Positions 2,418-63,966 of a stretch of 64,000 nucleotides of DNA are shown here, piece by piece (position 1 is the first letter of the stretch; every line of letters starts with the position of its first letter). Source of the stretch: a phage; NCBI GenBank assembly GCA_025677605.1, contig GCA_025677605.1_4110.1, one strand, 5' to 3'. A program made the position numbers and the translations under genes. The notes beneath the pieces are model-generated. The model ran no database searches. It saw nothing but the letters and a program-made list of their open reading frames with translations, and was not told the origin of the DNA.

Positions 2418-3113
2418 TTATACCCACTCTTCCACGCCACCGCGACGTTTAACTAGGTATTGACCTTTTTCATTACGTGGACCAAGGATAATACCATCGA
2501 TAAATCCAAGTTCACCATACTCAAGTGCTTCATCTGCACTCAACCACAAATCGCGGTCCGCATCTTCTAGTAGTTTTTCATGAGAAACACCTACAGCTTC
2601 AGCGATTTCTTTCGTCAGCAATGTGTTCAATGCATCAGAGTGTTTTAGTGCAATTTTCTGATCAGTGATCAGACCTTGTGTACCAGAACTTACTTGGTGA
2701 CACATAAAGTACGAGCGTTTACCACCAAGACGATAACCTTTAGTACCAACTACTGATTGTGTGTAGCAACCCATTGATGCTGCATAACCCATCACTACTG
2801 TGCGGATTGGTGATACACAAGATTTAGCAATATCAGAAATACCCAAACCTGCATGAACACTACCACCCGGCGAGGAAATATAAAGAGTAATTGGTTCAGA
2901 ACCTTGAGAATCCAACCACACCAATTGTTGCTTGATGATATGTGCCATCTGGTCGTTGAAATCAGTATCAAGGAAAATGATACGGTCTTGCATCATACGA
3001 GATGCTAGATCATAAGTACGTTCGTTGCCATTAACTTTTTCAACTACATATGGAATTGAAATGTTAGTTGTTTCACCATTCGCATAACCACCAAACATAA
3101 ATTGTTGAGTCAT
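2418..3113 (-). CDS. clpP: ClpP-like serine protease subunit
   Basis: Ser motif VMGYAASMG, His in FMCHQ, Asp in DADRD; ISSPGGSV block; overall collinear with bacterial ClpP. Confidence 0.85.
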   Translation of the reverse strand: MTQQFMFGGYANGETTNISIPYVVEKVNGNERTYDLASRMMQDRIIFLDTDFNDQMAHIIKQQLVWLDSQGSEPITLYISSPGGSVHAGLGISDIAKSCVSPIRTVVMGYAASMGCYTQSVVGTKGYRLGGKRSYFMCHQVSSGTQGLITDQKIALKHSDALNTLLTKEIAEAVGVSHEKLLEDADRDLWLSADEALEYGELGFIDGIILGPRNEKGQYLVKRRGGVEEWV

Positions 3114-6200: not shown

Positions 6201-7397
6201 TTATAGATAATAGGTTCCATAAAAAATAGGACAGTCAGTGCTAATATGAACCATAGTTTTTTTATTAGATTCTGATGAATTATTACTATATCGTTTGGTC
6301 GGTGGATAGAAAGGTGAATTATAACCACGCCATGTATTGAAAGATGTATGTTCATCGATATCAACATCCATTGACATTACACCATTCGCATCAACTTCTA
6401 CTGGGTATCCGCAGTATTTTTCAAAATCACCCTTGTACGCTATAGAATAATCATGGCGATAATATCCATAGGAATTTCTGCTGTTGTTATCTGAAATACC
6501 AAAGAATACACGATATTTTTGACCATTCTGTTCAGTCATGAATAATACGTTTTCATTGAAACGACCATTAACAAGAACGTCTTTAGTGATTTCAGTGTAT
6601 TTTACTTTCATATCAGTACTTTTAAATGATTTAGTACTGATCAGTACTGGCCTATTACATTCACCTAATGCGTTCTCAGTTCGCATTCGGTACGTATTGA
6701 AATATGCATTTGCTTTAACAATTTCAGCTTCCATTGTTGTTTTAACGTTATGGAGTGCTCTGGGTGTTAATTCGTATCGGTCAAGGCTTGCACATACACC
6801 ATATGTACCATCAGCGATACAATACACCATATGATAGAAAGAACTTTTGTTAGGTAAAGAGAATTCTTTAGTTTTCTTCAAACAAAGAGCATGAACGCGA
6901 CCACAATAGTAGTACTCTTTTTTGTTATAAAGGAATCCATCACCAACTTTCAACTCACCAACAACGCTTTTACGTTCTTCAGCTTTTTCTTGCTTCTCTT
7001 GCATCTTAGCAAATGTTTTTGTATTACCATTGATGAGTTCAAGATTATTATTAAAGAACATAGCATCTTGGAATACACCATTAACGATATCATTGTGTGT
7101 GATTAAGTCCAGCATATTGTTTGCAGTGATATTGAACTCAAATCCTTCTGGGTGACGACAAACAAAATAGGTATCACGCCCACTGTGAATCAATTTTTGA
7201 ACAATAGCAAAACCTTTTTTCGGTTCATTGTCGAGTATAAGTGACGGCATATTATTGGTTCTTGCCCAGTACTCAACACGTTCTTTCTTAGTTTCAAATG
7301 CTTTAGTGTGCATTTTAGTTGCGTCGATAATATATCCGTCAACCTGATCCCCACTAACAAAACGTCTTGCGACGAAAATCTTTTCAGGAAAATTCAT
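6201..7397 (-). CDS. hypothetical protein (~399 aa)
   Basis: Track ORF 6201..7460; likely start at Met (MNFPEKIF) at 7397 forming ATGA overlap with upstream stop. Confidence 0.5.
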   Translation of the reverse strand: MNFPEKIFVARRFVSGDQVDGYIIDATKMHTKAFETKKERVEYWARTNNMPSLILDNEPKKGFAIVQKLIHSGRDTYFVCRHPEGFEFNITANNMLDLITHNDIVNGVFQDAMFFNNNLELINGNTKTFAKMQEKQEKAEERKSVVGELKVGDGFLYNKKEYYYCGRVHALCLKKTKEFSLPNKSSFYHMVYCIADGTYGVCASLDRYELTPRALHNVKTTMEAEIVKANAYFNTYRMRTENALGECNRPVLISTKSFKSTDMKVKYTEITKDVLVNGRFNENVLFMTEQNGQKYRVFFGISDNNSRNSYGYYRHDYSIAYKGDFEKYCGYPVEVDANGVMSMDVDIDEHTSFNTWRGYNSPFYPPTKRYSNNSSESNKKTMVHISTDCPIFYGTYYL

Positions 7398-13421: not shown

Positions 13422-14354
13422 TCAAAATAGTCCAGGTTCCACCTGAAATACTTTCAAGCCTAGTAGCTTACGCCACATGAATACAACGGCGGCCCTGTCA
13501 TCAAATACTTTCTTAACATCGTAATGATTAACAACGTTATTCATATACAACTCGAATTTGACAACATCATCAGGACGTTTATCATCGATAGCTCGCATTA
13601 ACAATACATCGTAGGGAATGCCCCAATTCTTAAGCCACTGTTCAGTATCAGCACGACACCCTTCAGTACGCCCACTCATGACGATTACCTTACGCTTATG
13701 GAAAACAGCCTCAGCAATGACAGACAGAATTACTTCTTCATCTGGTGTATCCTGAAGGACAGTACTTTCATCAAACGGGTTACGTCCCCACTTATGAGCA
13801 AGAGTACCGTCGATATCAACAATGATAGCAGCTTCACGTGCATTACCATAGTAACCAATGTGTAATGCCTTTCTATAATAGTACGTATCTGCCATTGTGT
13901 CAATGATATCATATTGAACTGAACGCTCACGCTGGAGGTTATATTTCTTACAAAGTTTTACGAACTCTTTAATCTTAAAGAATTCATGAACATCTGCACC
14001 ACGGTCTTCATTAGGCACAAAATCATCATAGAAGTTCTTTTCTTTGTAATCATAACCATTATCTTTAGCCCAACGTTTCCATTCATCACGAAAACCTTGT
14101 TTCAGGTTCGTATCGGACACAATAATATTCCATCCATTCGCTGCTGCGGCGTTTGCTGCACTGAACTGTTGATTAGTTACGTACTTCTCGTTCGCATCAG
14201 TGAATTTATAAGCATCATGTGACCCAGCCATAGACTCTCGAATATCATCACGGTTGATGTTGATAGTCTTGGACTTTGCTTTTTTAATTTCTTGCACTGC
14301 CCACGTGGTTTTACCACATCCTGGCAATCCAACTGTTAGTGTAATAGTTGGCAT
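13422..14354 (-). CDS. pseT: polynucleotide 5'-kinase / 3'-phosphatase
   Basis: P-loop GLPGCGKTT at N-terminus; HAD phosphatase DxDGT motif (IVDIDGTLA); length 310 aa and layout match T4 Pnk as I recall it. Confidence 0.9.
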   Translation of the reverse strand: MPTITLTVGLPGCGKTTWAVQEIKKAKSKTININRDDIRESMAGSHDAYKFTDANEKYVTNQQFSAANAAAANGWNIIVSDTNLKQGFRDEWKRWAKDNGYDYKEKNFYDDFVPNEDRGADVHEFFKIKEFVKLCKKYNLQRERSVQYDIIDTMADTYYYRKALHIGYYGNAREAAIIVDIDGTLAHKWGRNPFDESTVLQDTPDEEVILSVIAEAVFHKRKVIVMSGRTEGCRADTEQWLKNWGIPYDVLLMRAIDDKRPDDVVKFELYMNNVVNHYDVKKVFDDRAAVVFMWRKLLGLKVFQVEPGLF

Positions 14355-15427: not shown

Positions 15428-16573
15428 CTAAAAATCCTTTAGTACATCTTTGTAGTACTTTAGTAAAGTCTCTTTATAATCGACACTTTTGCCATTGTAC
15501 AACGCAAAGGCCAAGCCTTGTCGGTTCAATACATTAGGTAAATCTTGCTGAACCTTTTGAGCGAATTCCTTTCGCTCTAAGTGCTTGTATGCATGGACGA
15601 AGCTTTCTACCTCATCTTGTAAAGCATTATAGCACGAAAATACCAATTGTTCCATTCTTAATATCTTATCCATAGCATATGTATCAGTACTGAACAATTG
15701 TTTTAAGTCATCACTTGCACCAGTCAGTACAGCTTCATATAAATGGGAATCAATAAGAATGGAATCTTTTGTTAAATGCAAAGAGCAATACCAGTCAGTT
15801 TTGATTTTGCACATTGTACCATCTTTCATTATACACACAAAACCTTCAATGTCAAGCATAGAACGTACTTTATCGATTGACTCTTTAAATGTAGGCATAA
15901 TCGGGAATGTATGATGAATGTCATTACCTGTCATATTAGTACTGTACTGTGAAAGGCATGGAAACTTATCACGTAGTGCTTTACCGCATAACAACTCACC
16001 ACTAATACGATGACGAACGTTAAGAACAAATAACTGTTCCACCTGATATGGTAACACAATTCGATACTCTGGGCTTGTGTATTCCAGATTCACAGTATAG
16101 CCCAAACGGTCTGCTTCATCAATGTATTGATAGAGATTTTGGTTCTCGTTCAAAAGTCGAGTACTGTTAATAGCATGGTCAGAAGATAACGAAGTGTGTG
16201 ATTTGCAACGGATTTCACCATCATTATCACGGAATGTGCTGATGATAGATCCATCTAGCTTAGGCATTACAACCGCAATATCATCACAGGTAGTATCAGC
16301 ACTGAACATTGTGTACGGGTTTTCATATGCATTGAAGAACTTTTTCATTGTACGTGCTGCACAACGAATCATAATTCCGTTGGAATCAATTTCCCACATA
16401 GAACCACGAGTTTCTAGTGCATTTTTATTTGTGAAATCGGTATAAGATGCCAGACGATAGGTGAATACACGGTATAAACCACCACCAGGGCTTGTGTGAT
16501 CTATATAGAAAAATGCATCATTAGATTCACATAGTTCCATTAAATCATTGTATATTTCTCGTAAATTACTCAT
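15428..16573 (-). CDS. rnlA: RNA ligase 1
   Basis: N-terminus YNDLMELCESNDAFFY...LYRVFTYRLASYTDF...RGSMWEID and KxDG nucleotidyltransferase motif (VMPKLDGSII) resemble T4 Rnl1 as I recall it; 381 aa. Confidence 0.9.
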   Translation of the reverse strand: MSNLREIYNDLMELCESNDAFFYIDHTSPGGGLYRVFTYRLASYTDFTNKNALETRGSMWEIDSNGIMIRCAARTMKKFFNAYENPYTMFSADTTCDDIAVVMPKLDGSIISTFRDNDGEIRCKSHTSLSSDHAINSTRLLNENQNLYQYIDEADRLGYTVNLEYTSPEYRIVLPYQVEQLFVLNVRHRISGELLCGKALRDKFPCLSQYSTNMTGNDIHHTFPIMPTFKESIDKVRSMLDIEGFVCIMKDGTMCKIKTDWYCSLHLTKDSILIDSHLYEAVLTGASDDLKQLFSTDTYAMDKILRMEQLVFSCYNALQDEVESFVHAYKHLERKEFAQKVQQDLPNVLNRQGLAFALYNGKSVDYKETLLKYYKDVLKDF

Positions 16574-20507: not shown

Positions 20508-20700
20508 GTACACGCTCACAATTAAGGCAATAAATGCACTCAATGTCTGGTCGCCATGATTTATCAAAATCTTTGTGCTGTTCTTCAGTGTATTCCGCAT
20601 CATCATTGATGGGAAAGAAATCCCCAGCACCAGTGGCCCAGTCTGAATCTAAGCGGAAACGAGCTAATTGAGTACTGTTACAGTATGGACATTTATTCAA
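20500..20700 (-). CDS. small zinc-ribbon protein (66 aa)
   Basis: CPYCNS ... CIYCLNC cysteine pairs; start codon in track is TTG, so start uncertain. Confidence 0.4.
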   Translation of the reverse strand: MNKCPYCNSTQLARFRLDSDWATGAGDFFPINDDAEYTEEQHKDFDKSWRPDIECIYCLNCERVHD

Positions 20701-20980
20701 AATTTATTCCTTCTAACTGATATACGTTTAATGAAAATGACCCACTATTATTATCGCATCTGAAACACAGTGTTAAAGAACCATTAAAACTAACGACATC
20801 AGTACAGGTACATTTTTCACCATTGGATATGATAGATTTTCCTATATATAAATCTCTTACTATAGTACGGTAATGTTGCCATAAAAAATAATACACACTT
20901 TCATAGTACTCATCTGTTACATATGACAAGTATAAGAAGCTATAAAATACTTGTATTTCCTTTAAGTTGTTTTTCATCAT
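20693..20980 (-). CDS. small-protein family member (MNYxDL / YIGK family)
   Basis: RDLYIGKSIIS motif; tandem with paralogs. Confidence 0.55.
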   Translation of the reverse strand: MMKNNLKEIQVFYSFLYLSYVTDEYYESVYYFLWQHYRTIVRDLYIGKSIISNGEKCTCTDVVSFNGSLTLCFRCDNNSGSFSLNVYQLEGINFE

Positions 20981-21240
20981 TTAAAATCCAGTAAATTTAT
21001 ACCAATGAAGTCCCCGTCTCTGCGGTAGAATTCTAAACGCAACCTACCTCTATGACTTACTACATCAGTACAACGATAGTTTTTATTATTTCTACGTATT
21101 GGAAGTCCTATAAAATGATGTTGTATCTCAGATAGATAATTTGACCATATTTTATTACGTACTTCATAGTAGAAACCTAATTCGTTATTCATATCATCAT
21201 ATAAAAGTTGATATGTGAATTGTAAATCATGATAGTTCAT
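20977..21240 (-). CDS. small-protein family member (MNYxDL / YIGK family)
   Basis: N-terminus MNYHDLQFTYQLLYDD; QHHFIGLPI motif. Confidence 0.55.
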   Translation of the reverse strand: MNYHDLQFTYQLLYDDMNNELGFYYEVRNKIWSNYLSEIQHHFIGLPIRRNNKNYRCTDVVSHRGRLRLEFYRRDGDFIGINLLDFK

Positions 21241-21509
21241 AGGTACTCCAAATCAACAAATCCGCTTTTCGACTCTTCATTGTTATAGTAAATTCCAACA
21301 AGACTTCCATTATAACTTTTAATTCTGATAATACGTACAGTCATGTCGTCAATCATATATTCTTTATCAACAAAAATCTCGTTAATCATTGCCAAATATT
21401 CACACCACAATGTAAGAAAAAAATCTCGTTCATCGTAAGTTAATATTCCTTCACCACGTTCATATTGTTCATGAAGAATTTTGTACGTGAATTGTAAATC
21501 CTTATAATT
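21237..21509 (-). CDS. small-protein family member (MNYxDL / YIGK family)
   Basis: Track ORF 21237..21584 trimmed to Met giving family N-terminus MNYKDLQFTYK. Confidence 0.5.
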   Translation of the reverse strand, partial: NYKDLQFTYKILHEQYERGEGILTYDERDFFLTLWCEYLAMINEIFVDKEYMIDDMTVRIIRIKSYNGSLVGIYYNNEESKSGFVDLEYL

Positions 21510-21768
21510 CATAGATATAAATCTCATGTAATCCATCACTAGAATCTCTACCCCTGAAGCATAGATCCCCGTTGTAACTATCAACTTGAAATATTTTTAC
21601 TGTTTTACCTTCGTATTGAATTATAGTACCTATAAAATGTTCACGTAAAGATTTTATATAATCACTCCACAAACGATGATAAAATGCATTATCCATGCAG
21701 TTGTTATCAGCGTAACGATACATATAAAATGTTAGTTTATAGGTGAAATGTAAATCCTTATAATTCAT
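21502..21768 (-). CDS. small-protein family member (MNYxDL / YIGK family)
   Basis: N-terminus MNYKDLHFTYK; REHFIGTII motif. Confidence 0.55.
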   Translation of the reverse strand: MNYKDLHFTYKLTFYMYRYADNNCMDNAFYHRLWSDYIKSLREHFIGTIIQYEGKTVKIFQVDSYNGDLCFRGRDSSDGLHEIYIYEL

Positions 21769-22040
21769 TATAATATCTCTAAATTTATAGATTGTTGTCC
21801 AATAATAGAATCAGTATAGAATAACACAATTTCACCACCTATACTATCAACGCGTGTTAGCTTACGCATTTCACCATCTATAAAGATTTCGTTAGCGTAA
21901 AAGTAATTTTGAATCATTGTAAAATATTCATTCCATATAATATAAACTGGATTTTTATAAATGATAGGATTATGTACTTTACTTTCAATATATGTTTTGT
22001 ATAAAGCTTTATATGTTCTATTCAGTACTCGATAATCCAT
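21768..22040 (-). CDS. small-protein family member (MNYxDL / YIGK family)
   Basis: N-terminus MDYRVLNRTYKALY; same size and position in array. Confidence 0.55.
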   Translation of the reverse strand: MDYRVLNRTYKALYKTYIESKVHNPIIYKNPVYIIWNEYFTMIQNYFYANEIFIDGEMRKLTRVDSIGGEIVLFYTDSIIGQQSINLEIL

Positions 22041-38091: not shown

Positions 38092-39504
38092 TTATTTCAC
38101 GTTAAAAATCGAAGTGGCTTTTTGTAAAGCATGTACTTCAGACTGTTGATTGTCTACCATCATCATTGTGTCCTTGACATGCTCCGCATTTTGCTGTACT
38201 GAACGGTCCATCATATTAACACTCTCGGTAACCTGAAGGATTGCAATGCTTTGTTGTTCAGCCATTATAGCTAAATCATCAATGAACTGCAAGAGAGAAT
38301 CAACATTTTTTACAATAGAATCAATATCACTTGCAGTTTCGTTGATTTGTTCTATTCCTTGGTTGTTGTTTTTTACAGAGTTATCAACGATTTCTTTAAT
38401 TTCTTTACTACATGCATCACATTTCATTGCTAAGTTACGAACTTCCTGTGCAACAACAGAGAATCCACGTCCATGTTCACCCGCTTTAGCAGCCTCAATA
38501 CTGGCATTTAAAGAAAGAATATTAGTCTGGAAAGCAATAGTTTCTATATTTTTGAGTATAGCAACTATAGCATTAGAATCTTCTTTAATTCTATCCATCT
38601 GCTCTTTGCAATTATTAATACTTTCAATTGCATTAGTACTGGATTCTTTTGTAGTTTTAACCATACTTTTTGCAGTATTGGAGTTATCAGATGTATTTGC
38701 AGATGTAGCACTTAATTCTTCCATAGCAGCAGCGATTTGAGTAAGTGCCTGTCCTTGTGTTTCAGTTCTGAAAGCTAAATCATTACTTTTACTTTCGAGA
38801 TGATAGGAGTTGCTTTTCATTGACTGAACTGTAATTTGTACTTGTTCAATTGCCTCACGCATAGCTGATATTGTTTTACTAAAAGTCTGTGCAAATTCTG
38901 AGTTGAAATGATTATTTTGTATTTCTAAAGTAATATTGCCGTCTTCAGAATTCACCGAATGGGCAATTCGTTGAATTTCATCTGCTTCATTTGCATCTTT
39001 CTCCATAATATACGCAACGTACATCAGAACTATTGCCTGTACTACTACATATATTGCGTGCTCTATAATGTGCCATAACGAAATATGGTGAAAAGAAAAC
39101 ACGAATAATATTGGAATTCCAGCACCCTGTAACAATCCAAATAATAAATGATGTATAGCAATCAGTACTGAACCTGCTAATACACAACGCCAGTCACGCC
39201 ATACAATCAATAAACTTAAAAAGACAAAAACTGTAAAGTGCCATTCCACCATCCCTAAGCCAAGATGTATTAGTAACGCACTCCAGCACATCACATTTAT
39301 ACTTAACAACGTTCGAGTGAACGCATTACTTTCAACAAATAGTAAAGGAGTTAGCATTACTAATAATAAAACTGCACCGATTAGTGCAATAATAAAACTA
39401 CCATGAACAACACCGGAAACTAAAGTAACAGCAAATAAAGCCCCTATACAACATAGTACTAAATTATCGGCTTTTTTGCGTATATTTTCTAAATTACTTT
39501 TCAA
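38092..39504 (-). CDS. methyl-accepting chemotaxis protein-like transducer with multi-TM N-terminal domain
   Basis: C-terminal MCP signalling domain: highly conserved [25 protein letters not shown] block and [14 protein letters not shown]; ~6-7 hydrophobic helices in first 170 aa; track start codon is TTG so exact start uncertain. Confidence 0.8.
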
Positions 39505-47506: not shown

Positions 47507-47732
47507 AGTGTTCGCTCATTTCATTCATATATTCATAGCACGATAGGTATATAATTTTTTTAATCATAAAAGACATATCAGATTTATCACTGTCCTCTGC
47601 AATACGAAAAATATAACGCATATTAGCAAAGATATAAAGAGGTATATCAGATGCTTCAGTACCAGAAAATATATCTATAATAAACCCATAACTGAAATCC
47701 GATGCTGGTGCTTGTTCAAAAGTATTGTCCAT
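47496..47732 (-). CDS. hypothetical small protein (78 aa)
   Basis: Minus-strand ORF between array members. Confidence 0.45.
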   Translation of the reverse strand: MDNTFEQAPASDFSYGFIIDIFSGTEASDIPLYIFANMRYIFRIAEDSDKSDMSFMIKKIIYLSCYEYMNEMSEHYDL

Positions 47733-47922
47733 TTTTCATCCTTATAATACCCAATAGGTACTTAATATACGTCTCAACTGAAGCCTCCTGGTATTGTGTC
47801 CCTATGTACATCAGTAACTGTAATTCCGACACGTCATTTTGATTGGAAGACCTGATTGCAGTGAACATTTGAGCACTGTATTGGTTAAGAATATCTTGCA
47901 TGTCTCTGTGTCTTATACCCAC
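47716..47922 (-). CDS. GTNYQ-family small protein, hypothetical
   Basis: Motif LMYIGTQYQEA. Confidence 0.5.
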   Translation of the reverse strand: MGIRHRDMQDILNQYSAQMFTAIRSSNQNDVSELQLLMYIGTQYQEASVETYIKYLLGIIRMKNGQYF

Positions 47923-48140
47923 GGTGACTCCCCCTTTCCTTGAACTTTATTCTGAATTAATTTCTGAAGGTTAAAAATGTAATCTTTCATCACAACCTCT
48001 TGATAATTAGTTCCAAGAAAATGATTCAACTTGTAATCATGATATGGTCGCCTCTTCTTCAAAAGGGGATGAAATGTATTCCATTTTGTGTAAATGTCAG
48101 AACACATCCTGTAGTACTGGTGTTTTGGAATATACTTCAT
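47913..48140 (-). CDS. GTNYQ-family small protein, hypothetical
   Basis: Motif HFLGTNYQEV. Confidence 0.5.
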   Translation of the reverse strand: MKYIPKHQYYRMCSDIYTKWNTFHPLLKKRRPYHDYKLNHFLGTNYQEVVMKDYIFNLQKLIQNKVQGKGESPWV

Positions 48141-48706
48141 AGTATACCATCAACGAATACATCTTCGAATTCAAATGTTGAAGTATCAATGTATAAATTA
48201 CTTCTGAAGTTCATTTGCATCTCCATATATAGACGTAGAATCATGTACATGTCATCAGTACATGACAATTGAAACATCTGCTCTTCAAATGCGTTGTAAT
48301 TGTATTTCGGGATTTCAATAGTACTACTCTTTACTGTATCCCACCAGTTCTGAATACCAAAATATAATTCAGTACTTTTTCCTGTATAAAACAAATTCAT
48401 GATTTGATTTTTTTCATTCAAGTACAAACGGTTCGTGCCGCATACGGCAATACCAATACCAATAAGTGTAAGTGCAGGAAGACCGTCACGTAATACACGA
48501 CAACGATGAAATGTACCACCCTTATAGACTGACTGTAGGTAGTATCCTTCTTTAATAATGTCTCGTGATGGAATCAAACCAGTACTGCAATCCTTAAGCA
48601 AAGGAACTATAATGTTGATTTTACGAGATAATTCCTGCATTTCCTCTGCATTGTAAGCATCAATAATCATTTCATGTGCACCTTTTGAATTAATATTACT
48701 GTGCAT
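48137..48706 (-). CDS. FQ-family paralog, hypothetical
   Basis: Motif EEQMFQLSCTD. Confidence 0.55.
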   Translation of the reverse strand: MHSNINSKGAHEMIIDAYNAEEMQELSRKINIIVPLLKDCSTGLIPSRDIIKEGYYLQSVYKGGTFHRCRVLRDGLPALTLIGIGIAVCGTNRLYLNEKNQIMNLFYTGKSTELYFGIQNWWDTVKSSTIEIPKYNYNAFEEQMFQLSCTDDMYMILRLYMEMQMNFRSNLYIDTSTFEFEDVFVDGIL

Positions 48707-56624: not shown

Positions 56625-57013
56625 TTAATAGGGTATTCCGTTTCATTCACTACATACGACATAATCCATCCGTAATGGATAGGATGATATTTGTCTGAAT
56701 CAGGAATAAAATATAAAGCTGTACTGGGATTATAACTGAAGAAATCCCTCTCGTCAAATGTTAATCTGGCTAACTTAATTTTCCTTGGAATTGCATGAGG
56801 ACGAACTGCATTCTTTACACAGAATATACCATCTTTGTATTTTGGTTCGATAACACCCAATGCACTCTGGATTAACTCCTGAAAGACTAAATTGATTTGT
56901 GCAAATGAATCCTTGTTGTTATGCATTTCGTGCCATAAATCTCGTCTTGCATTTAACATCATTATTACTGGTCTAAGATCCTGTACTATTGTTAGATTCT
57001 GCATTGTATTCAT
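56612..57013 (-). CDS. hypothetical protein (133 aa)
   Basis: Minus-strand ORF. Confidence 0.5.
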   Translation of the reverse strand: MNTMQNLTIVQDLRPVIMMLNARRDLWHEMHNNKDSFAQINLVFQELIQSALGVIEPKYKDGIFCVKNAVRPHAIPRKIKLARLTFDERDFFSYNPSTALYFIPDSDKYHPIHYGWIMSYVVNETEYPIKWER

Positions 57014-57230
57014 TTATCTCATTCTGTAACTTAACAACCAAAATTTGCGTATGAATTTTTCGCTCAAGGTGCTTGATAAATTTCTGTACCATTTCTTCTT
57101 GTACTGATGTACCAAGATAAAATAACATATTAAATTCTGATAATCGCAGAGCAAAATCTTCATCGCCCCCCTGTAAACAAAAATCCCTGTACTTCGATGC
57201 GTACAAATGATGGTTTACATTTTTGTACAT
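56973..57230 (-). CDS. GTNYQ-family small protein (diverged), hypothetical
   Basis: Motif FYLGTSVQEE. Confidence 0.45.
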   Translation of the reverse strand: MYKNVNHHLYASKYRDFCLQGGDEDFALRLSEFNMLFYLGTSVQEEMVQKFIKHLERKIHTQILVVKLQNEINEYNAESNNSTGS

Positions 57231-57433
57231 TTAGACTCCTTTGGTGTGCATACTATCTCTGTTCGTAAAGCCCTTATGTATGCATCAACGAATTGTGGCT
57301 GTGCTCTCGTTCCTAGATAAAATAATAAATCGAACTCTGCCATTTTAACATTAAAAGGATCTGAATCTACATTTCGAATAAACTGTCTGTACTTCAATTC
57401 ATATCCGTTAGGCATCTTCTTGTATACTATCAT
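57215..57433 (-). CDS. GTNYQ-family small protein (diverged), hypothetical
   Basis: Motif FYLGTRAQPQ. Confidence 0.45.
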   Translation of the reverse strand: MIVYKKMPNGYELKYRQFIRNVDSDPFNVKMAEFDLLFYLGTRAQPQFVDAYIRALRTEIVCTPKESKCTKM

Positions 57434-57743
57434 ATTCTATACAATCACCTCTTTTAATCGAATCCCAAACTTCTTTCATCCTCTTCTGTAAACTGCACAT
57501 AATATCTATATCAAACATATAAGGGTCATGAATTAGACTGTACTGAAATAATTCATCTTCCTGCATAAGAGAAAGATCCTGAAGCAACTCGTACTTACCT
57601 AAACTCCTGGGACTCAAATAAGCAAAATATTCTTTACCGTCCTCAAAAACATAATGTACTTCATGATTCATGTACTTCTTGTAATTCTCATGCGTATAAG
57701 CAAATATACAACCGGAATTAATTCGGTGAATGTTGAATTTCAT
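57408..57743 (-). CDS. FQ-family paralog, hypothetical
   Basis: Motif EDELFQYSLIH. Confidence 0.55.
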   Translation of the reverse strand: MKFNIHRINSGCIFAYTHENYKKYMNHEVHYVFEDGKEYFAYLSPRSLGKYELLQDLSLMQEDELFQYSLIHDPYMFDIDIMCSLQKRMKEVWDSIKRGDCIEYDSIQEDA

Positions 57744-58370: not shown

Positions 58371-58601
58371 CTACAATAGAGTACTGTCAACTGCTTTGTT
58401 CTCTATTATACTCATTAAACCCCAAATTAGATAACGAACACTATCAGCTTGATAGTTAGTACCTACTGTGCATTTTAAAATTAACTCATCTTTCAGTACT
58501 GCACGTTCTTCTTGGGATATAGGAAGAGAATTTATTTGTTTTATTTGTGGTTGTAAAGTATTAATAAGCTTGCAGTACTCTTCGAATGATAATCTTTTCA
58601 T
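58371..58601 (-). CDS. GTNYQ-family small protein, hypothetical
   Basis: Motif KCTVGTNYQAD. Confidence 0.5.
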   Translation of the reverse strand: MKRLSFEEYCKLINTLQPQIKQINSLPISQEERAVLKDELILKCTVGTNYQADSVRYLIWGLMSIIENKAVDSTLL

Positions 58602-58604
58602 GGT

Positions 58605-58946
58605 TCAGTACTCAATAATGTGTTCTTCATAAGCACTATTAGGCTCCTGTTTAGTTTCTTTTATTAGTACTATCATCTTATGTGCCAATGGCATAGGAAA
58701 CTCTAAATCCCATACTAATGATTCTTGAAAGTATTCTTCTTCAGATAAAGTACTTAAATCTTCAATGTCAATGTGTTCGTACATGTTATATTTGTAATCA
58801 GCAAAAGATATATAAAAACCTCTTGTAGAATCGTAAGTAATCGTGAATGGCTTACCTTTGTAGTCCATTACATCTTTACATAGACTGCATTTGATATATG
58901 TACTTGCAAATGATTTATAAACCTTAAGTTGAATATTAGTTTTCAT
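58605..58946 (-). CDS. FQ-family paralog, hypothetical
   Basis: Motif EEEYFQESLVW. Confidence 0.55.
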   Translation of the reverse strand: MKTNIQLKVYKSFASTYIKCSLCKDVMDYKGKPFTITYDSTRGFYISFADYKYNMYEHIDIEDLSTLSEEEYFQESLVWDLEFPMPLAHKMIVLIKETKQEPNSAYEEHIIEY

Positions 58947-58948
58947 TT

Positions 58949-59170
58949 TTAAACACCTATTCCATTAGCAATAGCAGTACTTAACGCTAACAAATACTTC
59001 TGTACTGCTTGCTCTTGATGATCTGTACCTAAAAGTATATACACCCATAATTCACTGTAGTGTACATCTTCTGTATAAGGGTTGTTGTAACTTTTTGATA
59101 ATATAGCATCAAATTCAGATGCATGAACCCTTGTGAACTTAAGAATATCTTGTTGTGTTATGATTCTCAT
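58949..59170 (-). CDS. GTNYQ-family small protein, hypothetical
   Basis: Motif ILLGTDHQEQ. Confidence 0.5.
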   Translation of the reverse strand: MRIITQQDILKFTRVHASEFDAILSKSYNNPYTEDVHYSELWVYILLGTDHQEQAVQKYLLALSTAIANGIGV

Positions 59171-59382
59171 AGCTTTTCCTGTATAAGCTTCTTAAGTATT
59201 TCTATGTGTGAATTAACAGTTCTTTCTTGATGCTGTGTTCCTAAGAGTATCAGTACTATCATCTCTGAACGCAAAAGATTTTTTTCAAGTTCCCCTATAT
59301 CAGTTCTTGTATCAAGTACTAAAAATTTGTGATTATTCTTTCTGAATAGTTCTAAGTACTCTTGATTTGATATTGTCTTCAT
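59167..59382 (-). CDS. GTNYQ-family small protein, hypothetical
   Basis: Motif ILLGTQHQER. Confidence 0.5.
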   Translation of the reverse strand: MKTISNQEYLELFRKNNHKFLVLDTRTDIGELEKNLLRSEMIVLILLGTQHQERTVNSHIEILKKLIQEKL

Positions 59383-59609
59383 AGTTTATCCCTGATGCCA
59401 TTTAAAAGTGCTCTAATATGCTCCTGTACGAATTTGTACTGACTGTCTGTTCCTAGAGTGAGTAACAATCTTAAATCTGAACTTTTGATATGATATTCTA
59501 AATCATTATTTGATTCTTGCCTCAGTTTCTGAAAGGATGAGAAGTTTGCTGCCATTAGTTCAATGTATTCTGCTGTTCCTAGGGGTTTGTGTATGTGCTG
59601 TCTGTGCAT
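59379..59609 (-). CDS. GTNYQ-family small protein, hypothetical
   Basis: Motif LTLGTDSQYK. Confidence 0.5.
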   Translation of the reverse strand: MHRQHIHKPLGTAEYIELMAANFSSFQKLRQESNNDLEYHIKSSDLRLLLTLGTDSQYKFVQEHIRALLNGIRDKL

Positions 59610-59815
59610 TTTAATTGTATTACCCTTTTAAGTGTATTAATATAATCCACGATGATGTGTTCTTGATAGTTAGTTCCTATAGTAGCTAGAACATAGATTT
59701 CACTTATTAGAATATTTTTTTCATCCTGTGATAATTCTTCTGACCAGCTACGATGCAACTTTGGAATTAAACTACTTAATAGTTGGTTGTATTCAGTAGG
59801 TGAAATGATTTTCAT
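59579..59815 (-). CDS. GTNYQ-family small protein, hypothetical
   Basis: Motif ATIGTNYQEH. Confidence 0.5.
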   Translation of the reverse strand: MKIISPTEYNQLLSSLIPKLHRSWSEELSQDEKNILISEIYVLATIGTNYQEHIIVDYINTLKRVIQLKCTDSTYTNP

Positions 59816-60027
59816 TTACATCTTCTCAGTACTGATTCTTTAAGTTCATCGATGTAGTCCTCAACAAATTGTTCTTGTAGGTTTGTTCCGAGATGTAACA
59901 GTACTCTTAAATCTGCTCTAAGTACTTCTTTGTCATCTTCATCTATATCAGACAGTGATATGTTTAAGAATTTACTTGAATTCTCTATAAGTAATATTAC
60001 TTCATCACCTTCGCTTAAAATTTTCAT
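59812..60027 (-). CDS. GTNYQ-family small protein, hypothetical
   Basis: Motif LHLGTNLQEQ. Confidence 0.5.
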   Translation of the reverse strand: MKILSEGDEVILLIENSSKFLNISLSDIDEDDKEVLRADLRVLLHLGTNLQEQFVEDYIDELKESVLRRCK

Positions 60028-60239
60028 AATCTTTGTGTTTTCCTCGACAGTAGGTACAGGTAACGTTCAGTGCATTGTTCTTGATAGTTTGTTCCTAATA
60101 AATGAACTAATTGTTGTTCAGCTATAGAAAGCTGTTTATCTTCATAACAAGCGTATCGTTGTTTCCTATGGTATTCTTTATTGATAACATCAAGGATGAT
60201 AACACCGTATTCGTCATCTGTCAAGTGTTTCATGTGCAT
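60024..60239 (-). CDS. GTNYQ-family small protein, hypothetical
   Basis: Motif HLLGTNYQEQ. Confidence 0.5.
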   Translation of the reverse strand: MHMKHLTDDEYGVIILDVINKEYHRKQRYACYEDKQLSIAEQQLVHLLGTNYQEQCTERYLYLLSRKTQRL

Positions 60240-60471
60240 TTCTTTTTCTTATATGTTTAGTTAAAAGGTATATTAGTTTTCTTACGTACTCGTCTTGATA
60301 GTTAGTCCCTAATAGTGCAAGAAGTTTTGCTTCAACTAAAGCTAATTGTCGTTCTTCAAATGTGTGTTCCAGAATGTACTTGGGGTTTGATTTTTTAGAA
60401 ATTGCACTATTAGTCTTCATTATAATCTTATGATATTCATTGACTGTTAAGATTTTTATATATTTGGTCAT
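60214..60471 (-). CDS. GTNYQ-family small protein, hypothetical
   Basis: Motif ALLGTNYQDE. Confidence 0.5.
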   Translation of the reverse strand: MTKYIKILTVNEYHKIIMKTNSAISKKSNPKYILEHTFEERQLALVEAKLLALLGTNYQDEYVRKLIYLLTKHIRKRNAHETLDR

Positions 60472-60727
60472 GTATCTTTTCCTGAATAGTCATTTTAAGA
60501 TATCTAAGAATCGATCGAACATAATACTCCTGTCTATCGGTTCCAAGAAAGTACAGGAGTTGTTGATATAATACTTCTGCACTCCTTGCAGCAGGGGTTT
60601 GATTTGGGTCTTTTGGAAGTTGATTTGTATGTTTTCTGGATTTAATTATTCTTTCTTTTATTTCATCGTCTGTTAAGTATATCATTTGCATTTTATGTTC
60701 CTCACATGAATTGTTTGGATTAAACAT
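60437..60727 (-). CDS. GTNYQ-family small protein, hypothetical
   Basis: Motif YFLGTDRQEY. Confidence 0.5.
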   Translation of the reverse strand: MFNPNNSCEEHKMQMIYLTDDEIKERIIKSRKHTNQLPKDPNQTPAARSAEVLYQQLLYFLGTDRQEYYVRSILRYLKMTIQEKIHDQIYKNLNSQ

Positions 60728-60918
60728 TCAATCCAAGATGTAACATATCTTGTTTGATATTGTGTGCCTAAGAGACTCTGCATTTTAAACTCTGCTTCAA
60801 GTTCATATCTCTTTTCTATCGTAAAGCTTAAATGACCATATTCTGCATCGTATCTTCTCAGTGATTCCCCAATTCTATCAAATCTTTCTGCTAAGTTGAT
60901 GTTATTCACAGTATTCAT
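60682..60918 (-). CDS. GTNYQ-family small protein, hypothetical
   Basis: Motif SLLGTQYQTR. Confidence 0.5.
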   Translation of the reverse strand: MNTVNNINLAERFDRIGESLRRYDAEYGHLSFTIEKRYELEAEFKMQSLLGTQYQTRYVTSWIECLIQTIHVRNIKCK

Positions 60919-61178
60919 CGATCAGTACACCTCAGTGGTTGGGTCATTTGATAAAAGTACAGCTTACCTCTGATTTCCATTAACAACTCGGCTATGACGC
61001 GATTTACTTCTGTCTCTTGATAGTTTGTTCCTAAGAAGACACCCATCTTTAACTCACGATGCATAATCATCTTCTTACTGTGTTGAATTTCTTGGCTGTA
61101 ATAGATTGCATTACGTTTAGGTGAGATTTTTGCTAGTCGCTCGTTATATTCATCTTGACTTAAATTAATCATTTGCAT
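60915..61178 (-). CDS. GTNYQ-family small protein, hypothetical
   Basis: Motif VFLGTNYQET. Confidence 0.5.
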   Translation of the reverse strand: MQMINLSQDEYNERLAKISPKRNAIYYSQEIQHSKKMIMHRELKMGVFLGTNYQETEVNRVIAELLMEIRGKLYFYQMTQPLRCTDR

Positions 61179-61393
61179 TTACTTTGGACCTCATTTTGAA
61201 GTGCATTAATGACCTTCAGTACAGCACTCGCTTGATAGTTTGTTCCTAAGACTGAAAGCATCTTGATCTCATTTACTACAATCCACTTATTTGATTGTTC
61301 AATAATGTGACTTTCATAAATGGCCTTGCGTAATGAATAAGTTTTTGCAAGACGTACATAATATTCATCTTTACTTAAATTAATCATTTGCAT
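61169..61393 (-). CDS. GTNYQ-family small protein, hypothetical
   Basis: Motif SVLGTNYQAS. Confidence 0.5.
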   Translation of the reverse strand: MQMINLSKDEYYVRLAKTYSLRKAIYESHIIEQSNKWIVVNEIKMLSVLGTNYQASAVLKVINALQNEVQSKCK

Positions 61394-61602
61394 TTACTTT
61401 TAACCTCTTTCTGGAGTGCATCAATCCATAGGTCTATATACGTTTGTTGATAGTTTGTGCCTAAGAGTGCCTCTACATAGAGTTCAGCTACCTTTGCGTG
61501 CTTTAGGTCAACAGGGATGCTCTTATCGCTTGATAACATTCTCCTTCTGCTGGTGCATGTTTTCAGAAGCCTGATGTATTCAACACCTTGTAATTTTCTC
61601 AT
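61384..61602 (-). CDS. GTNYQ-family small protein, hypothetical
   Basis: Motif ALLGTNYQQT. Confidence 0.5.
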   Translation of the reverse strand: MRKLQGVEYIRLLKTCTSRRRMLSSDKSIPVDLKHAKVAELYVEALLGTNYQQTYIDLWIDALQKEVKSKCK

Positions 61603-61814
61603 TCTCTGGATATCACCTTGTTACGTAGACTTGCTAACCATGCGTCAGTATAGATGTTTTGATAGTTTGTCCCAATGAAGATAGATAGCTTCATTTCAGT
61701 TATTATAACACATTTGTCCACTTGTGCAATAGATTTGTTTAAAGAAATACTAGAAACTTTTGCTTGTATAGTTCGCAACAGCCTGTAATATTCATACCCA
61801 CTAAGGATTTTCAT
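61599..61814 (-). CDS. GTNYQ-family small protein, hypothetical
   Basis: Motif IFIGTNYQNI. Confidence 0.5.
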   Translation of the reverse strand: MKILSGYEYYRLLRTIQAKVSSISLNKSIAQVDKCVIITEMKLSIFIGTNYQNIYTDAWLASLRNKVISRE

Positions 61815-62061
61815 TCTCTCGTCTCCAGACTTCCGTTCTTATATGTTGTTGATATGCTTCCAGATAGTTCTCTATTGCCTTAGAGATTGTTTGTGTATCG
61901 TCGCCCGTCATCAGTACAAGCATCTCTGCTTCACAGTGTATAAGTCTGCTAATATCATTAGTGAGTTTATCAGATACCGTATCATAGTGTTTGTGGATTA
62001 GTTTCTGAAATAGTTTAACGTACATAATGTGATTTATTCTGGATCGCATTGTCTTTTCCAT
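61801..62061 (-). CDS. GTNYQ-family small protein (diverged), hypothetical
   Basis: Motif LMTGDDTQTI. Confidence 0.45.
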   Translation of the reverse strand: MEKTMRSRINHIMYVKLFQKLIHKHYDTVSDKLTNDISRLIHCEAEMLVLMTGDDTQTISKAIENYLEAYQQHIRTEVWRRENENP

Positions 62062-62285
62062 TCTCTTTTGGCCTGTCGGGTTTTATACGCTACAAGGTTT
62101 CTTAGTGCATTGATATAACGATCAGTGAAGATATCTTGTTTATTAGTTCCAACGAATTTAAGAAGAAACACGTCACCATTAACTACATCATTCTCAGGGG
62201 AAGGATAAAGTTCATTGTTCTTGCGAAGGGTGTTTAGTAAAGAGAATAGGGCAGATTGATACTCAGTGCTTGATAATACTTTCAT
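62034..62285 (-). CDS. GTNYQ-family small protein, hypothetical
   Basis: Motif KFVGTNKQDI. Confidence 0.5.
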   Translation of the reverse strand: MKVLSSTEYQSALFSLLNTLRKNNELYPSPENDVVNGDVFLLKFVGTNKQDIFTDRYINALRNLVAYKTRQAKREWKRQCDPE

Positions 62286-62509
62286 TAGTTCATTCCCTTT
62301 CTTTCTATATGTTTCATAAGAACATTAAGATACTCACCCACAAACCTATTCTGATACTGCGTCCCCATGAATTCAAACAGCCATACTTCAGCAACCATTT
62401 CTTCAATTTCATTCCAAGATAAGTACATCATAGTGAAGTAAATGTGGTTCTCTTTTTGAGATGCACTCCTTGAGCGAGCCTCGTATTCAAAGTTATTAAT
62501 GCAGTTCAT
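62285..62509 (-). CDS. GTNYQ-family small protein, hypothetical
   Basis: Motif EFMGTQYQNR. Confidence 0.5.
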   Translation of the reverse strand: MNCINNFEYEARSRSASQKENHIYFTMMYLSWNEIEEMVAEVWLFEFMGTQYQNRFVGEYLNVLMKHIERKGMN

Positions 62510-62718
62510 AGTTTACTCCTGATGTATTTCTCAAGAGCTATTAGATACTCTTGGACATAAGATTTCTGGTGGTCAGTTCCTAAGAAGACACCCAGAAGTA
62601 ATTCTTTTTCCATAACTTTTGATAAGTATACATCATCCCTGTCTGCATATATCAGCAAGATTTCAATCTGCTTAGAATTGTAACGTTTCCTATATTGCTC
62701 TGGTGTTAATATAATCAT
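62506..62718 (-). CDS. GTNYQ-family small protein, hypothetical
   Basis: Motif VFLGTDHQKS. Confidence 0.5.
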   Translation of the reverse strand: MIILTPEQYRKRYNSKQIEILLIYADRDDVYLSKVMEKELLLGVFLGTDHQKSYVQEYLIALEKYIRSKL

Positions 62719-62924
62719 AGTTTACTCTTTATATCTTCAATTAAAAATCCAATACAATCATTGACATACTCTTCCTGAAAGTTAGTCCCCAGTACAGCCA
62801 ACATGCGATACTCTGCTGACCTTATCGCTCTTTCAGTTTTTGGTAAGTTACGTGGTATAGTTACCATCAATTCAAGATACTCCACCATACGACTCAATGC
62901 TTGTCTTTGTGTTATAGTTTTCAT
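62715..62924 (-). CDS. GTNYQ-family small protein, hypothetical
   Basis: Motif AVLGTNFQEE. Confidence 0.5.
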   Translation of the reverse strand: MKTITQRQALSRMVEYLELMVTIPRNLPKTERAIRSAEYRMLAVLGTNFQEEYVNDCIGFLIEDIKSKL

Positions 62925-63121
62925 AATTTACACCTCGCTCGTATGTCAGCTTTCAAAGATTCCAAATAGTGCGTTACCCACACTTCCTGATAGTTGGTTC
63001 CCATCGTAATCAACAGGTACAACTCAACTCTTTCTAAGTGCACATTGCTTTGGTAAATCCTTGCCGTGTTTTTACGTAGTATATGATGATATTCATCTTG
63101 GGTTAATGTACGCATTTTCAT
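62921..63121 (-). CDS. GTNYQ-family small protein, hypothetical
   Basis: Motif ITMGTNYQEV. Confidence 0.5.
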   Translation of the reverse strand: MKMRTLTQDEYHHILRKNTARIYQSNVHLERVELYLLITMGTNYQEVWVTHYLESLKADIRARCKL

Positions 63122-63315
63122 AGTTTACCATTTATCTCTAAACATAACTCTTTTACATATAGTTTAACATATTCATTTTGTAAGTTAGTTCCTAAGAATA
63201 GTTCCATAACTAATTCACGTTTATAGGCATTACCACGTTTATGAGACTTATACATTATCATAGCCATGTTATTGATAAGTCTTTCGTGATGCTCTTCTTG
63301 TGTTAAAATACGCAT
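63118..63315 (-). CDS. GTNYQ-family small protein, hypothetical
   Basis: Motif LFLGTNLQNE. Confidence 0.5.
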   Translation of the reverse strand: MRILTQEEHHERLINNMAMIMYKSHKRGNAYKRELVMELFLGTNLQNEYVKLYVKELCLEINGKL

Positions 63316-63342: not shown

Positions 63343-63371
63343 AAAAAACATCATACCCCATATGAGGCATG
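63343..63371 (-). terminator. putative rho-independent terminator
   Basis: Imperfect hairpin (G-U pairs on minus-strand RNA) at 63352-63371 followed by UUUUUU. Confidence 0.4.
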
Positions 63372-63381
63372 ATGTCAAGTG

Positions 63382-63966
63382 TTAAAGCTTACCCATGTAA
63401 GTAAGTTCTTCCATAATAAATTTTAGTCCAGCTTCGTCGGTGAGTTCAGTACAGCCATCTTTGATTTTAACATGTTGCATATGATTAATTAAATTAGTAT
63501 ACTTCAACATATCCTCAAGGTCAGCAGCTTCAACTGAGTTTTCAAACAGTACAGCTATGATTTCTTCAGAATCGAACCTATTGTTATATTTGAATAGTTC
63601 ACGACGATTTGTTAAATTATGAGTAACTCCGTATTTGTAAACAACTTCACTATTGTGGATGAACTTATTGACATAGAAATAAGCTTCATGCGAACCATTG
63701 AATGTCTTACGCTTATAACAATCTGGGCAGTTTGTTATATTACCATTTTCAACTATATGACACATTTTTCGTTCAAAAATACAACCACATTTACATTCAA
63801 GATTGCATGTGTAATTACCATATACTCCATGTCTATTTGATTTACCTGACGGAATATACCCATTACATCTTATATCATTTCCCTGAAATTCTAGAATGCA
63901 ATTAGCAACGTAAACTATATCTTTATCAGTATATCGTATACGAGAAATATTATTAGCTTTCATCAA
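63382..63966 (-). CDS. Cys-rich putative zinc-binding protein (194 aa)
   Basis: Cluster CNGY...CNLECKCGC...CHIVENGN...CPDC in N-terminal half; possibly nuclease-like but fold not recognised. Confidence 0.5.
   Translation of the reverse strand: MMKANNISRIRYTDKDIVYVANCILEFQGNDIRCNGYIPSGKSNRHGVYGNYTCNLECKCGCIFERKMCHIVENGNITNCPDCYKRKTFNGSHEAYFYVNKFIHNSEVVYKYGVTHNLTNRRELFKYNNRFDSEEIIAVLFENSVEAADLEDMLKYTNLINHMQHVKIKDGCTELTDEAGLKFIMEELTYMGKL

Follow-up and report, generated by a model that had tools for sequence, protein, structure and literature searches.

A 64,000-nucleotide stretch of phage DNA (NCBI GenBank assembly GCA_025677605.1, contig GCA_025677605.1_4110.1; hereafter the window) carries a tandem array of very small genes that belong to a single protein family. 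We describe the layout, predicted structure, distribution, and evolution of this family, which has 25 members in the window, all on the minus strand and 64 to 96 amino acids (aa) long; 20 of the 25 are contiguous, at positions 58949–63315. The gene arrangement directly supports a predicted operon in which about 20 genes share one transcript and are coupled in translation; 5 more copies lie scattered. The sequences and a structural model directly support predicted products that are cytosolic three-helix-bundle proteins of 7 to 10 kDa, drawn from one ancient and highly diverged family. We propose, with a probability of roughly 40%, that the array is an early operon whose small, diversified products bind host proteins.

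The window is Asteriusvirus DNA from a 121Q/PBECO4-like jumbo coliphage, and its nearest relative is Escherichia phage A4. The 5.1-kb array region is 94.9% identical to A4 and 79% to 86% identical to 30-odd further Asteriusvirus genomes. These relatives are jumbo myoviruses of ~350 kb with E. coli and Salmonella as hosts. Only 5 of the 36 related genomes can be aligned across at least 80% of the array, and all of the relatives' genes that match beneath it are annotated “hypothetical protein”; in phage phAPEC6, 83% of genes lack a known function. The whole window is a single minus-strand block of ~33% G+C content (about 0.34 in the array genes). The small family (~6 kb) and a second, larger family of tandem genes, the FQ family (~30 kb), together occupy more than half of it.

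A first-pass annotation of the window had proposed about 25 tiny paralogs, with outliers at 47716–48140, 56973–57433, and 58371–58601, and the present count of 25 agrees. It had placed 21 genes in one consecutive run; 20 are contiguous, and the 21st (58371–58601) is set apart by one FQ gene (58605–58946). The family consensus is MKILTQDEY...LLGTNYQEEYVEKYIEALKKEIRSK, or in short form MKILTxxEY...LGTNYQExxVxxYIxxL. Among the 25 members, the Thr of the motif never varies, and conservation reaches 90% or more at its Gly, its Gln, and one Leu. With a family profile, the members score expect values (E) below 1e-15 and every other open reading frame (ORF) of the window scores above 0.1; this is a circular test, since the profile was built from the members themselves. 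Other lines of evidence are independent of it. Plain BLASTP with single linkage places 23 of the 25 members in one cluster, and the external profile phrog_4148 matches 24 of the 25 at E 0.01 or better (best E = 3.4e-26), with member 1 spanning positions 1–71 of its 74. Translated in six frames, the window contains the motif [LIVMFT]GTxxQ 30 times, against 1.8 +/- 1.4 in shuffled windows, and hGTxxQ occurs 24 times in the members, against 0.05 in residue-shuffled members. Because clustering, external profile, and shuffle tests agree, a compositional artefact is excluded, and the paralogous family proposed by the first-pass annotation is genuine. By these matches the family is phrog_4148 (with phrog_28039), PHROGs entries of unknown function.

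Coding evidence points in the same direction. Shine–Dalgarno (SD)-like 4-mers precede 18 of the 25 starts, against a background of 19%, and an independent gene caller predicts the same genes on a Logan contig. Scans of all 25 members with Pfam, NCBIfam, and PADLOC gave scattered single-member matches with E above 3e-4, which we treat as noise. A profile search against PDB sequences reached a best E of 2, and an Rfam scan of 46–64 kb gave no match.

The 20-gene run has zero intergenic gaps. Its junctions include 4-nt ATGA overlaps in 10 of 19 cases when longest-ORF starts are used, and in 13 to 14 of 19 with profile-guided starts, which bears out the earlier suggestion of one closely packed unit in which stop and start codons overlap. 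A sigma-70-like promoter candidate, TTGACA-17-TATGAT (63350–63378, minus strand), lies upstream of member 1, at a distance of about 35 nt; it matches the consensus at 11 of 12 positions and is identical in A4 and PBECO4. At the same spot, fEgEco12, 121Q, and JNE01 have a TTGACT-16-TATTAT or TAAAAT element. Across the 8 phages compared, a sigma-70-like element precedes the array in 6; SP27 has a near match (TTGATT), and no promoter-like element was found at the array start of SD-1_S14. The region of 46–64 kb contains seven 11-of-12 promoter matches, all on the coding strand.

The promoter candidate overlaps a terminator-like element: a sequence scan detected a 13-bp hairpin followed by a T run (TTTTTT) at 63347–63376 on the minus strand. 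The two hexamers of the promoter-like site, -35 and -10, fall within the arms of this hairpin, and the composite is conserved in A4 and PBECO4. The hairpin probably terminates the upstream endonuclease-like gene; the composite element (63347–63378) could thus act as a terminator for that gene and a promoter for the array. Phage phAPEC6 encodes its own sigma factor. A phage sigma of this type would serve later genes, an arrangement that would fit early genes read by the host polymerase.

The array also occupies a fixed place in the genome. The ends of fEgEco12 were mapped by PhageTerm and confirmed by restriction digests, which gave direct terminal repeats of 20,993 bp (PMC13070987). Its first array gene, g057, starts at 21,091, ~100 bp past the repeat, and is followed by 27 more members; the array of fEgEco12 therefore adjoins the terminal repeat and lies outside it. 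The mapped end of the fEgEco12 repeat (record position 20,993) falls at the 13-mer GGGTAACCTTAGC (positions 6986–6998 of fetched locus L004). This 13-mer precedes the first array gene by 90 to 580 bp in fEgEco12, 121Q, JNE01, PBECO4, SD-1_S14, and SP27 (equivalent sites in loci L005–L009), and A4 carries a diverged version. The 13-mer may be part of a terminase recognition or cutting site. The window, A4, and PBECO4 have an extra gene inserted between the repeat boundary and the array; the boundary of the window's phage should therefore lie just beyond the window end.

In the window, the extra gene is a 194-aa endonuclease-like ORF (63382–63966, minus strand), which matches phrog_681 “endonuclease” (E = 4e-15) and contains a GIY-YIG-like FYV...YKYGVT stretch. 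It is present at this spot in the window and A4, absent there in fEgEco12, 121Q, SP27, and JNE01, and replaced in PBECO4 by a different, 366-bp gene; it looks like a mobile homing-endonuclease insertion. In phage T6, a homing endonuclease drives the amplification of nearby anti-defence genes (PMC13096335).

A single structural model underlies our view of the fold. AlphaFold2 was run on member 1 with an alignment of the 25 paralogs only, and it returned a three-helix bundle with a mean predicted local distance difference test score (pLDDT) of 97.4 and helices at residues 6–24, 29–39, and 46–64, in keeping with the two- or three-helix bundle guessed earlier. A one-residue bridge connects residue 2 to the G-T turn, and the N-terminal MKIL strand appears to pack against the G-T motif. 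From the helix register, Q51, V55, Y58/I59, L62, and I66 fall on one face, and the T-x-x-Q with which helix 3 makes its first turn follows the pattern of a helix-capping box. Because of this register and this pattern, we read the signature motif as mainly structural, with G-T-x-x-Q as a probable helix N-cap. What stays fixed is a hydrophobic stripe along each helix, together with the G-T-x-x-Q that opens helix 3; the majority of other positions are free to vary. With helices 1 and 3 running in parallel and their N-termini joined by the bridge, the conserved polar residues are predicted to share one pole of the bundle: K2, T5, E8, Y9, the helix-2 Glu, and the T, N, Y, Q, and E at the start of helix 3. 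The “acidic stretch” that had been ascribed to all members survives as one conserved Glu in helix 2; as a general property it does not hold, with isoelectric points (pI) ranging from 4.4 to 9.7 (median 8.1) and net charges from -8 to +8.

Foldseek gave nothing below E = 6 against the PDB, and against BFVD it retrieved only Asteriusvirus family members. Similarity in sequence or fold to any deposited structure, including anti-defence proteins with solved structures, was not found.

The family has a narrow distribution. When 1.84 billion representative proteins were searched exhaustively with the profile, only 94 clusters came back, 23 of them at E <= 1e-10 and almost all of 52 to 96 aa. A word-indexed search returned 79 proteins, all on phages or on ~350-kb “E. 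coli” contigs that are phage genomes; many homologs labeled “Escherichia coli” sit on contigs of 345 to 360 kb, which are Asteriusvirus genomes within bacterial assemblies. Lytic phage genomes do occur in bacterial genome data (PMC12768965). A tblastn search with the consensus matched 40 phage records: 36 Escherichia/Salmonella jumbo phages, most with ~10 detectable places each, and 4 Klebsiella Alcyoneusvirus records with weak matches (K64-1 twice, KP13-7, and Muenster). Divergent members also occur on metagenomic contigs, which are further phage-like contigs of unannotated small genes. These searches directly support a family that is, as far as they reach, confined to Asteriusvirus and, in smaller scattered sets, to RaK2-like Alcyoneusvirus.

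A few members are fused to additional domains. A member of 115 aa is common to K64-1 and KP13-7, and a further one of 121 aa occurs in K64-1; each has an extra, unannotated C-terminal domain of ~55 aa. A 269-aa ORF (P0153), present in phages UB (MH383160, 185239–186045) and EC.P1 (PQ657772, 338002–338808), joins an N-terminal family domain to a domain of ~190 aa. The latter has homologs only among hypothetical proteins of RaK2 and K64-1 (gp504 region); it has no Pfam or PHROG match and no homolog in the window, and its single-sequence AlphaFold model has a pLDDT of 33. As functional clues, the fusion proteins gave no lead.

The members are old and have been retained under selection. Within the window, paralogs share a median identity of 26% and a maximum of 50%, which marks the expansion as old. 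Reciprocal-best orthologs are found in A4, fEgEco12, 121Q, PBECO4, SD-1_S14, SP27, and JNE01, with gene order kept in the closer relatives; most paralogs have collinear orthologs at 55% to 100% identity across the genus. The ratio of non-synonymous to synonymous substitution (dN/dS), computed as pooled pairwise Nei–Gojobori values with no codon-site model, is 0.34 to 0.52 against these seven relatives. At Thr48 and Gln51 not one non-synonymous change is seen, though the proportion of synonymous differences at their codons is 0.24 to 0.45. As judged from these substitution patterns, selection is purifying, relaxed but typical of this accessory block.

Copy number varies between phages. Counted by profile in the fetched stretches around the locus, and not in whole genomes, there are 25 members in the window, 23 in A4, 25 in 121Q, 27 in SD-1_S14, 28 in SP27, 30 in fEgEco12 (28 contiguous), 31 in PBECO4, and 20 in JNE01; the Alcyoneusvirus loci hold 6 in K64-1 and 10 in KP13-7. 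The differences from phage to phage are whole-gene insertions or deletions in a collinear array, and SD-1_S14 and 121Q each have a truncated copy (33 and 53 aa). By these comparisons the pattern is one of birth-and-death evolution, not of a recent accordion. Two members have a separate history: members 3 and 9 (62715–62924 and 61384–61602) are 67% and 60% identical to their A4 orthologs, whereas their immediate neighbors are 96% to 100% identical. The synonymous divergence (dS) of the two is also raised, to about 0.4 against 0 to 0.1, which argues for allele replacement by recombination and not for fast local evolution.

How might such an array serve the phage? In the reading that we favor, host sigma-70 RNA polymerase would read the operon from a promoter just inside the unique DNA beside the left terminal repeat, so placing the array among the first phage genes expressed. 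The mini-proteins would be non-catalytic and would bind host proteins stoichiometrically, with components of defence, transcription, division, or proteolysis as candidate targets. Each paralog would present a different surface to a different target or target variant, and unequal recombination between the repeated gene junctions would enlarge and trim the repertoire. Two precedents serve as analogies only: anti-defence genes cluster in the plasmid DNA that enters first (PMC11541004), and phages amplify anti-defence loci (PMC13096335).

Several observations weigh against this proposal of host-directed binders. The proposed function is deduced from position, size, fold, and evolutionary pattern alone, and the promoter candidates are matches to a consensus that is not enriched in the region overall (95 in 46–64 kb, against 99.6 expected). 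Localised diversifying selection was sought along the protein and none was found: dN/dS is 0.31 to 0.38 in every fifth of the protein (312 ortholog pairs), with no region above 1 and no sign of an arms race, and neighboring non-family genes have values of 0.32 to 0.51, so that the family is no higher. The long-term retention of orthologs suggests stable roles instead of rapid turnover, and it could equally well be a phage partner that docks at the conserved pole.

This last point leads to the strongest of the alternatives, which we consider unlikely yet deserving of serious attention: the mini-proteins may work inside the phage's own system as adaptors, chaperones, inhibitors, or regulators, above all of the FQ family, with the conserved pole docking a common phage component and the variable surface matching individual FQ paralogs. 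The FQ family (29738–58946, minus strand; ~30 kb) has at least 45 members of 100 to 215 aa, marked by an invariant F-Q inside E-E-x-(Y/F)-F-Q-x-S; it is spread over many PHROGs of unknown function and has no Pfam match. Its motif resembles the TEV/NIa protease site, E-x-x-Y-x-Q-S. The association of the two families by genome location is real. All five outlier copies stand directly behind FQ genes (58605–58946, 57408–57743, and 48137–48706), singly or paired, with junctions that overlap or nearly abut. In Alcyoneusvirus the families are interleaved along the same 24 kb, with 6 small and 9 FQ genes in K64-1 (L002 12037–22710) and 10 small and 26 FQ genes in KP13-7 (L003 2354–15987). The two families have undergone expansion in one and the same pair of genera and have the same dN/dS, and the stable retention of orthologs also suits a partnership within the phage.

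Against such a partnership, the bulk of the Asteriusvirus genes is sorted in blocks (20 to 28 small genes, then at least 45 FQ genes) without one-to-one pairing, copy numbers are unequal (25 and at least 45 in the window), and neither homology nor fusion connects the families; their co-location may only reflect a shared early accessory region. Descent from a common ancestor, which the first-pass annotation had suspected from a vague echo of the F-Q block, found no support: hhalign of the 25 small members against 45 FQ proteins gave a probability of 0.12% and E = 0.49 over 8 aligned columns, the families fall in different PHROGs, and the FQ proteins have an extra N-terminal region.

The genes might also be genome filler, that is, tandem duplications tolerated or favored to fill a headful-packaging jumbo capsid, with copies of little or no specific function; this is the capsid-filling “ratchet” idea of Hua et al. 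(PMC5646251). A copy number that varies from 20 to 31 without obvious consequence, constraint that is relaxed and no stronger than in neighboring genes (dN/dS about 0.35), and the truncated copies of SD-1_S14 and 121Q would all suit this explanation. We nevertheless rate it low, since the sequences plainly bear the mark of selection: dN/dS lies clearly under 1, the Thr and Gln of the motif are absolutely conserved in all paralogs and orthologs, and paralogs so old that they share 26% identity are still intact frames with coupling and SD sites kept. Orthologs are collinear across the genus, where neutral filler would have decayed.

A bolder variant, for which we hold out only a slim chance, is a two-faced “mini-binder library”. 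The pole formed by the N-terminal strand, the G-T-x-x-Q cap, and the nearby Glu and Tyr would dock all copies on one common machine (candidates are the FQ proteins, the ClpP that lies in the same block of phage genes, or a host hub), and a hypervariable surface of helix 1, loop, and helix 2 would give each of the 20 to 30 copies another client. Together the copies would form a combinatorial adaptor system, steering many host proteins towards a single fate. We know of no multi-paralog adaptor repertoire of this sort in a bacteriophage.

Small DNA- or RNA-binding regulators of helix-turn-helix-like type, controlling phage or host transcription, are more doubtful still. A length of ~60 aa and helix lengths that resemble homeodomain-type proteins, a Gly-containing turn before the last helix, and a median pI of 8.1 speak in their favor, as does the transcription-factor role that Iyer et al. 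proposed for the zinc-ribbon expansion of phage G (PMC7824862). On the other side, Foldseek matches to HMG domains reach only E 8 to 10, several copies are strongly acidic within the pI range of 4.4 to 9.7, and the last helix has no conserved basic surface; neither a helix-turn-helix or homeodomain fold match nor consistent basicity was found. Ribbon-helix-helix, homeodomain, and DNA-mimic ideas were rejected on the same grounds of fold and charge. That the ORFs are not translated at all, with the motif an artefact of AT-rich composition or a repeated DNA element, is barely credible: the genes are short, AT-rich (G+C about 0.34), and known from sequence alone, yet the motif excess (30 against 1.8), the dN/dS of about 0.35, the very confident structure model, the SD-like sites and start/stop overlaps, and the lack of an Rfam match in 46–64 kb all oppose it, and a DNA repeat is unlikely because the paralogs are too diverged (26% amino-acid identity).

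Published evidence on the products is sparse. Mass spectrometry of phAPEC6 virions identified 62 proteins (PMC7247149); no 7 to 10 kDa protein is among them, which fits a non-structural role, where the gp numbers are unmapped to coordinates and mass spectrometry easily misses small proteins. In the literature that mentions Asteriusvirus, no transcriptome or functional screen was found. The phrog_4148 entry describes the same family without function, structure, or genomic organisation. A 2017 mBio paper (Hua et al., PMC5646251) has one sentence on tandem duplication in 121Q, with the genes unnamed. It concerns the same genus and genome region and may mean the small family or the adjacent FQ family; it calls the copies “very similar”, whereas the paralogs described here share about 26% identity. 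What was already known is thus the database entry and the 2017 mention; fold, boundaries, position, selection, and distribution are in neither.

Small non-structural genes also lie densely grouped at or beside the terminal redundancy, with host-sigma-type promoters and overlapping genes, in the host-takeover module of Bacillus phage SPO1 and in the clusters of pre-early or early genes of T5 and T4. The array likewise is a dense run of small, overlapping genes beside the terminal redundancy with a host-type promoter-like site, and we think, by analogy, that it may work like these clusters. There are 2 differences: the SPO1, T5, and T4 clusters are made of unrelated genes, whereas the array consists of 20 to 30 paralogs of one fold, and the SPO1 module lies inside the terminal repeat, whereas the Asteriusvirus array starts just outside it. 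A more distant parallel is found in eukaryotic viruses. The MGF110/360/505 families of African swine fever virus and the poxvirus host-range families likewise consist of tandem paralogs close to the end of the genome and differ in copy number among isolates, and they too encode small non-structural proteins with a presumed role in host interaction; there is no homology. Those terminal families are typically engaged in an arms race, whereas the array shows no sign of recent accordion amplification or positive selection (dN/dS 0.35). Among jumbo phages, Bacillus phage G has a ~35-copy zinc-ribbon expansion of unknown function (Iyer et al. 2021, PMC7824862); there too, a very small domain has multiplied to dozens of copies in one lineage. 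The array differs from it in its predicted three-helix bundle, its lack of conserved Cys/His ligands, and its phage group, and DNA binding is unsupported. The FQ family shares strand, accessory block, and the two genera with the array; its proteins are longer and without detectable homology.

Multigene families make up a large share of the unknown-function genes of jumbo phages, and this one is an unusually clean case for study: one tiny fold that is modeled with confidence, 20 to 31 ancient copies under selection in the fetched stretches, and a fixed position at the inner edge of the terminal repeat, with a host-type promoter candidate in front. Asteriusvirus-type phages are also under development for therapy. 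If the proteins are host-directed binders, each copy would come ready for use as a probe of some E. coli target, perhaps in defence systems, and phages, like large eukaryotic viruses, would keep terminal multigene repertoires for host interaction. If the copies prove dispensable, they would support the “capsid-filling” view of jumbo genome growth.

The individual members are numbered in the direction of transcription, and their coordinates (all minus strand) rest on the ORF list, the junction analysis, and the family profile search of window ORFs. The run opens with member 1 (63118–63315; 65 aa), the protein of the structural model, which is 100% identical in A4. It continues with member 2 (62921–63121; 66 aa; alternative start 63115), member 3 (62715–62924; 69 aa), member 4 (62506–62718; 70 aa), member 5 (62285–62509; 74 aa), and member 6 (62034–62285; 83 aa). 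Member 7 (61801–62061; 82 to 86 aa; profile E = 1e-18) is divergent, with MTGDDTQ in place of LGTNYQ, a variant that orthologs in other phages retain. Members 8 (61599–61814; 71 aa) and 9 (61384–61602; 72 aa) are followed by members 10 (61169–61393; 72 to 74 aa) and 11 (60915–61178; 85 to 87 aa), which at 50% identity are the closest paralog pair of the window. After member 12 (60682–60918; 78 aa) comes member 13 (60437–60727), whose longest ORF has 96 aa; its likely start at 60685 would give 82 aa and an ATGA overlap. Member 14 (60214–60471; 85 aa) precedes member 15 (60024–60239; 69 to 71 aa), which has a promoter-like site at 60224–60196. Member 16 (59812–60027; 71 aa) is the most acidic copy, with a pI of 4.4. 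Members 17 (59579–59815; 78 aa), 18 (59379–59609; 76 aa), and 19 (59167–59382; 71 aa) lead to member 20 (58949–59170; 73 aa), the final gene of the contiguous run. The outliers are member 21 (58371–58601; 76 aa), directly downstream of FQ gene 58605–58946; member 22 (57215–57433; 66 to 72 aa; E = 5e-16), directly downstream of FQ gene 57408–57743, with member 23 (56973–57230; 85 aa; E = 7e-17); and member 24 (47913–48140; 75 aa; E = 2e-22), directly downstream of FQ gene 48137–48706, with member 25 (47716–47922; 68 aa; GTG start; E = 2e-17).

Other genes of the window lie farther along the transcriptional direction of the array. In the middle of the FQ array sits an odd gene for a phage, which encodes a protein of 470 aa resembling methyl-accepting chemotaxis proteins (MCPs) (38092–39504, minus strand) with an N-terminal hydrophobic region and the signalling domain PF00015 (E = 6e-37). 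Beyond it, in the same unidirectional minus-strand block, are genes for a polynucleotide kinase/phosphatase (Pnkp; 13422–14354), a T4 Rnl1-like RNA ligase (15428–16573), an ATP-dependent DNA ligase (4773–6191), and ClpP (2418–3113). In T4, Pnk and Rnl1 form the tRNA-repair pair that counters the PrrC anticodon nuclease. The authors of the phAPEC6 study suggested that their phage may counter the Prr abortive-infection system, with the genes unnamed there. Finally, a third and smaller tandem family occupies 20693–22040 on the minus strand; it comprises five adjoining paralogs of 87 to 115 aa linked by BLASTP.

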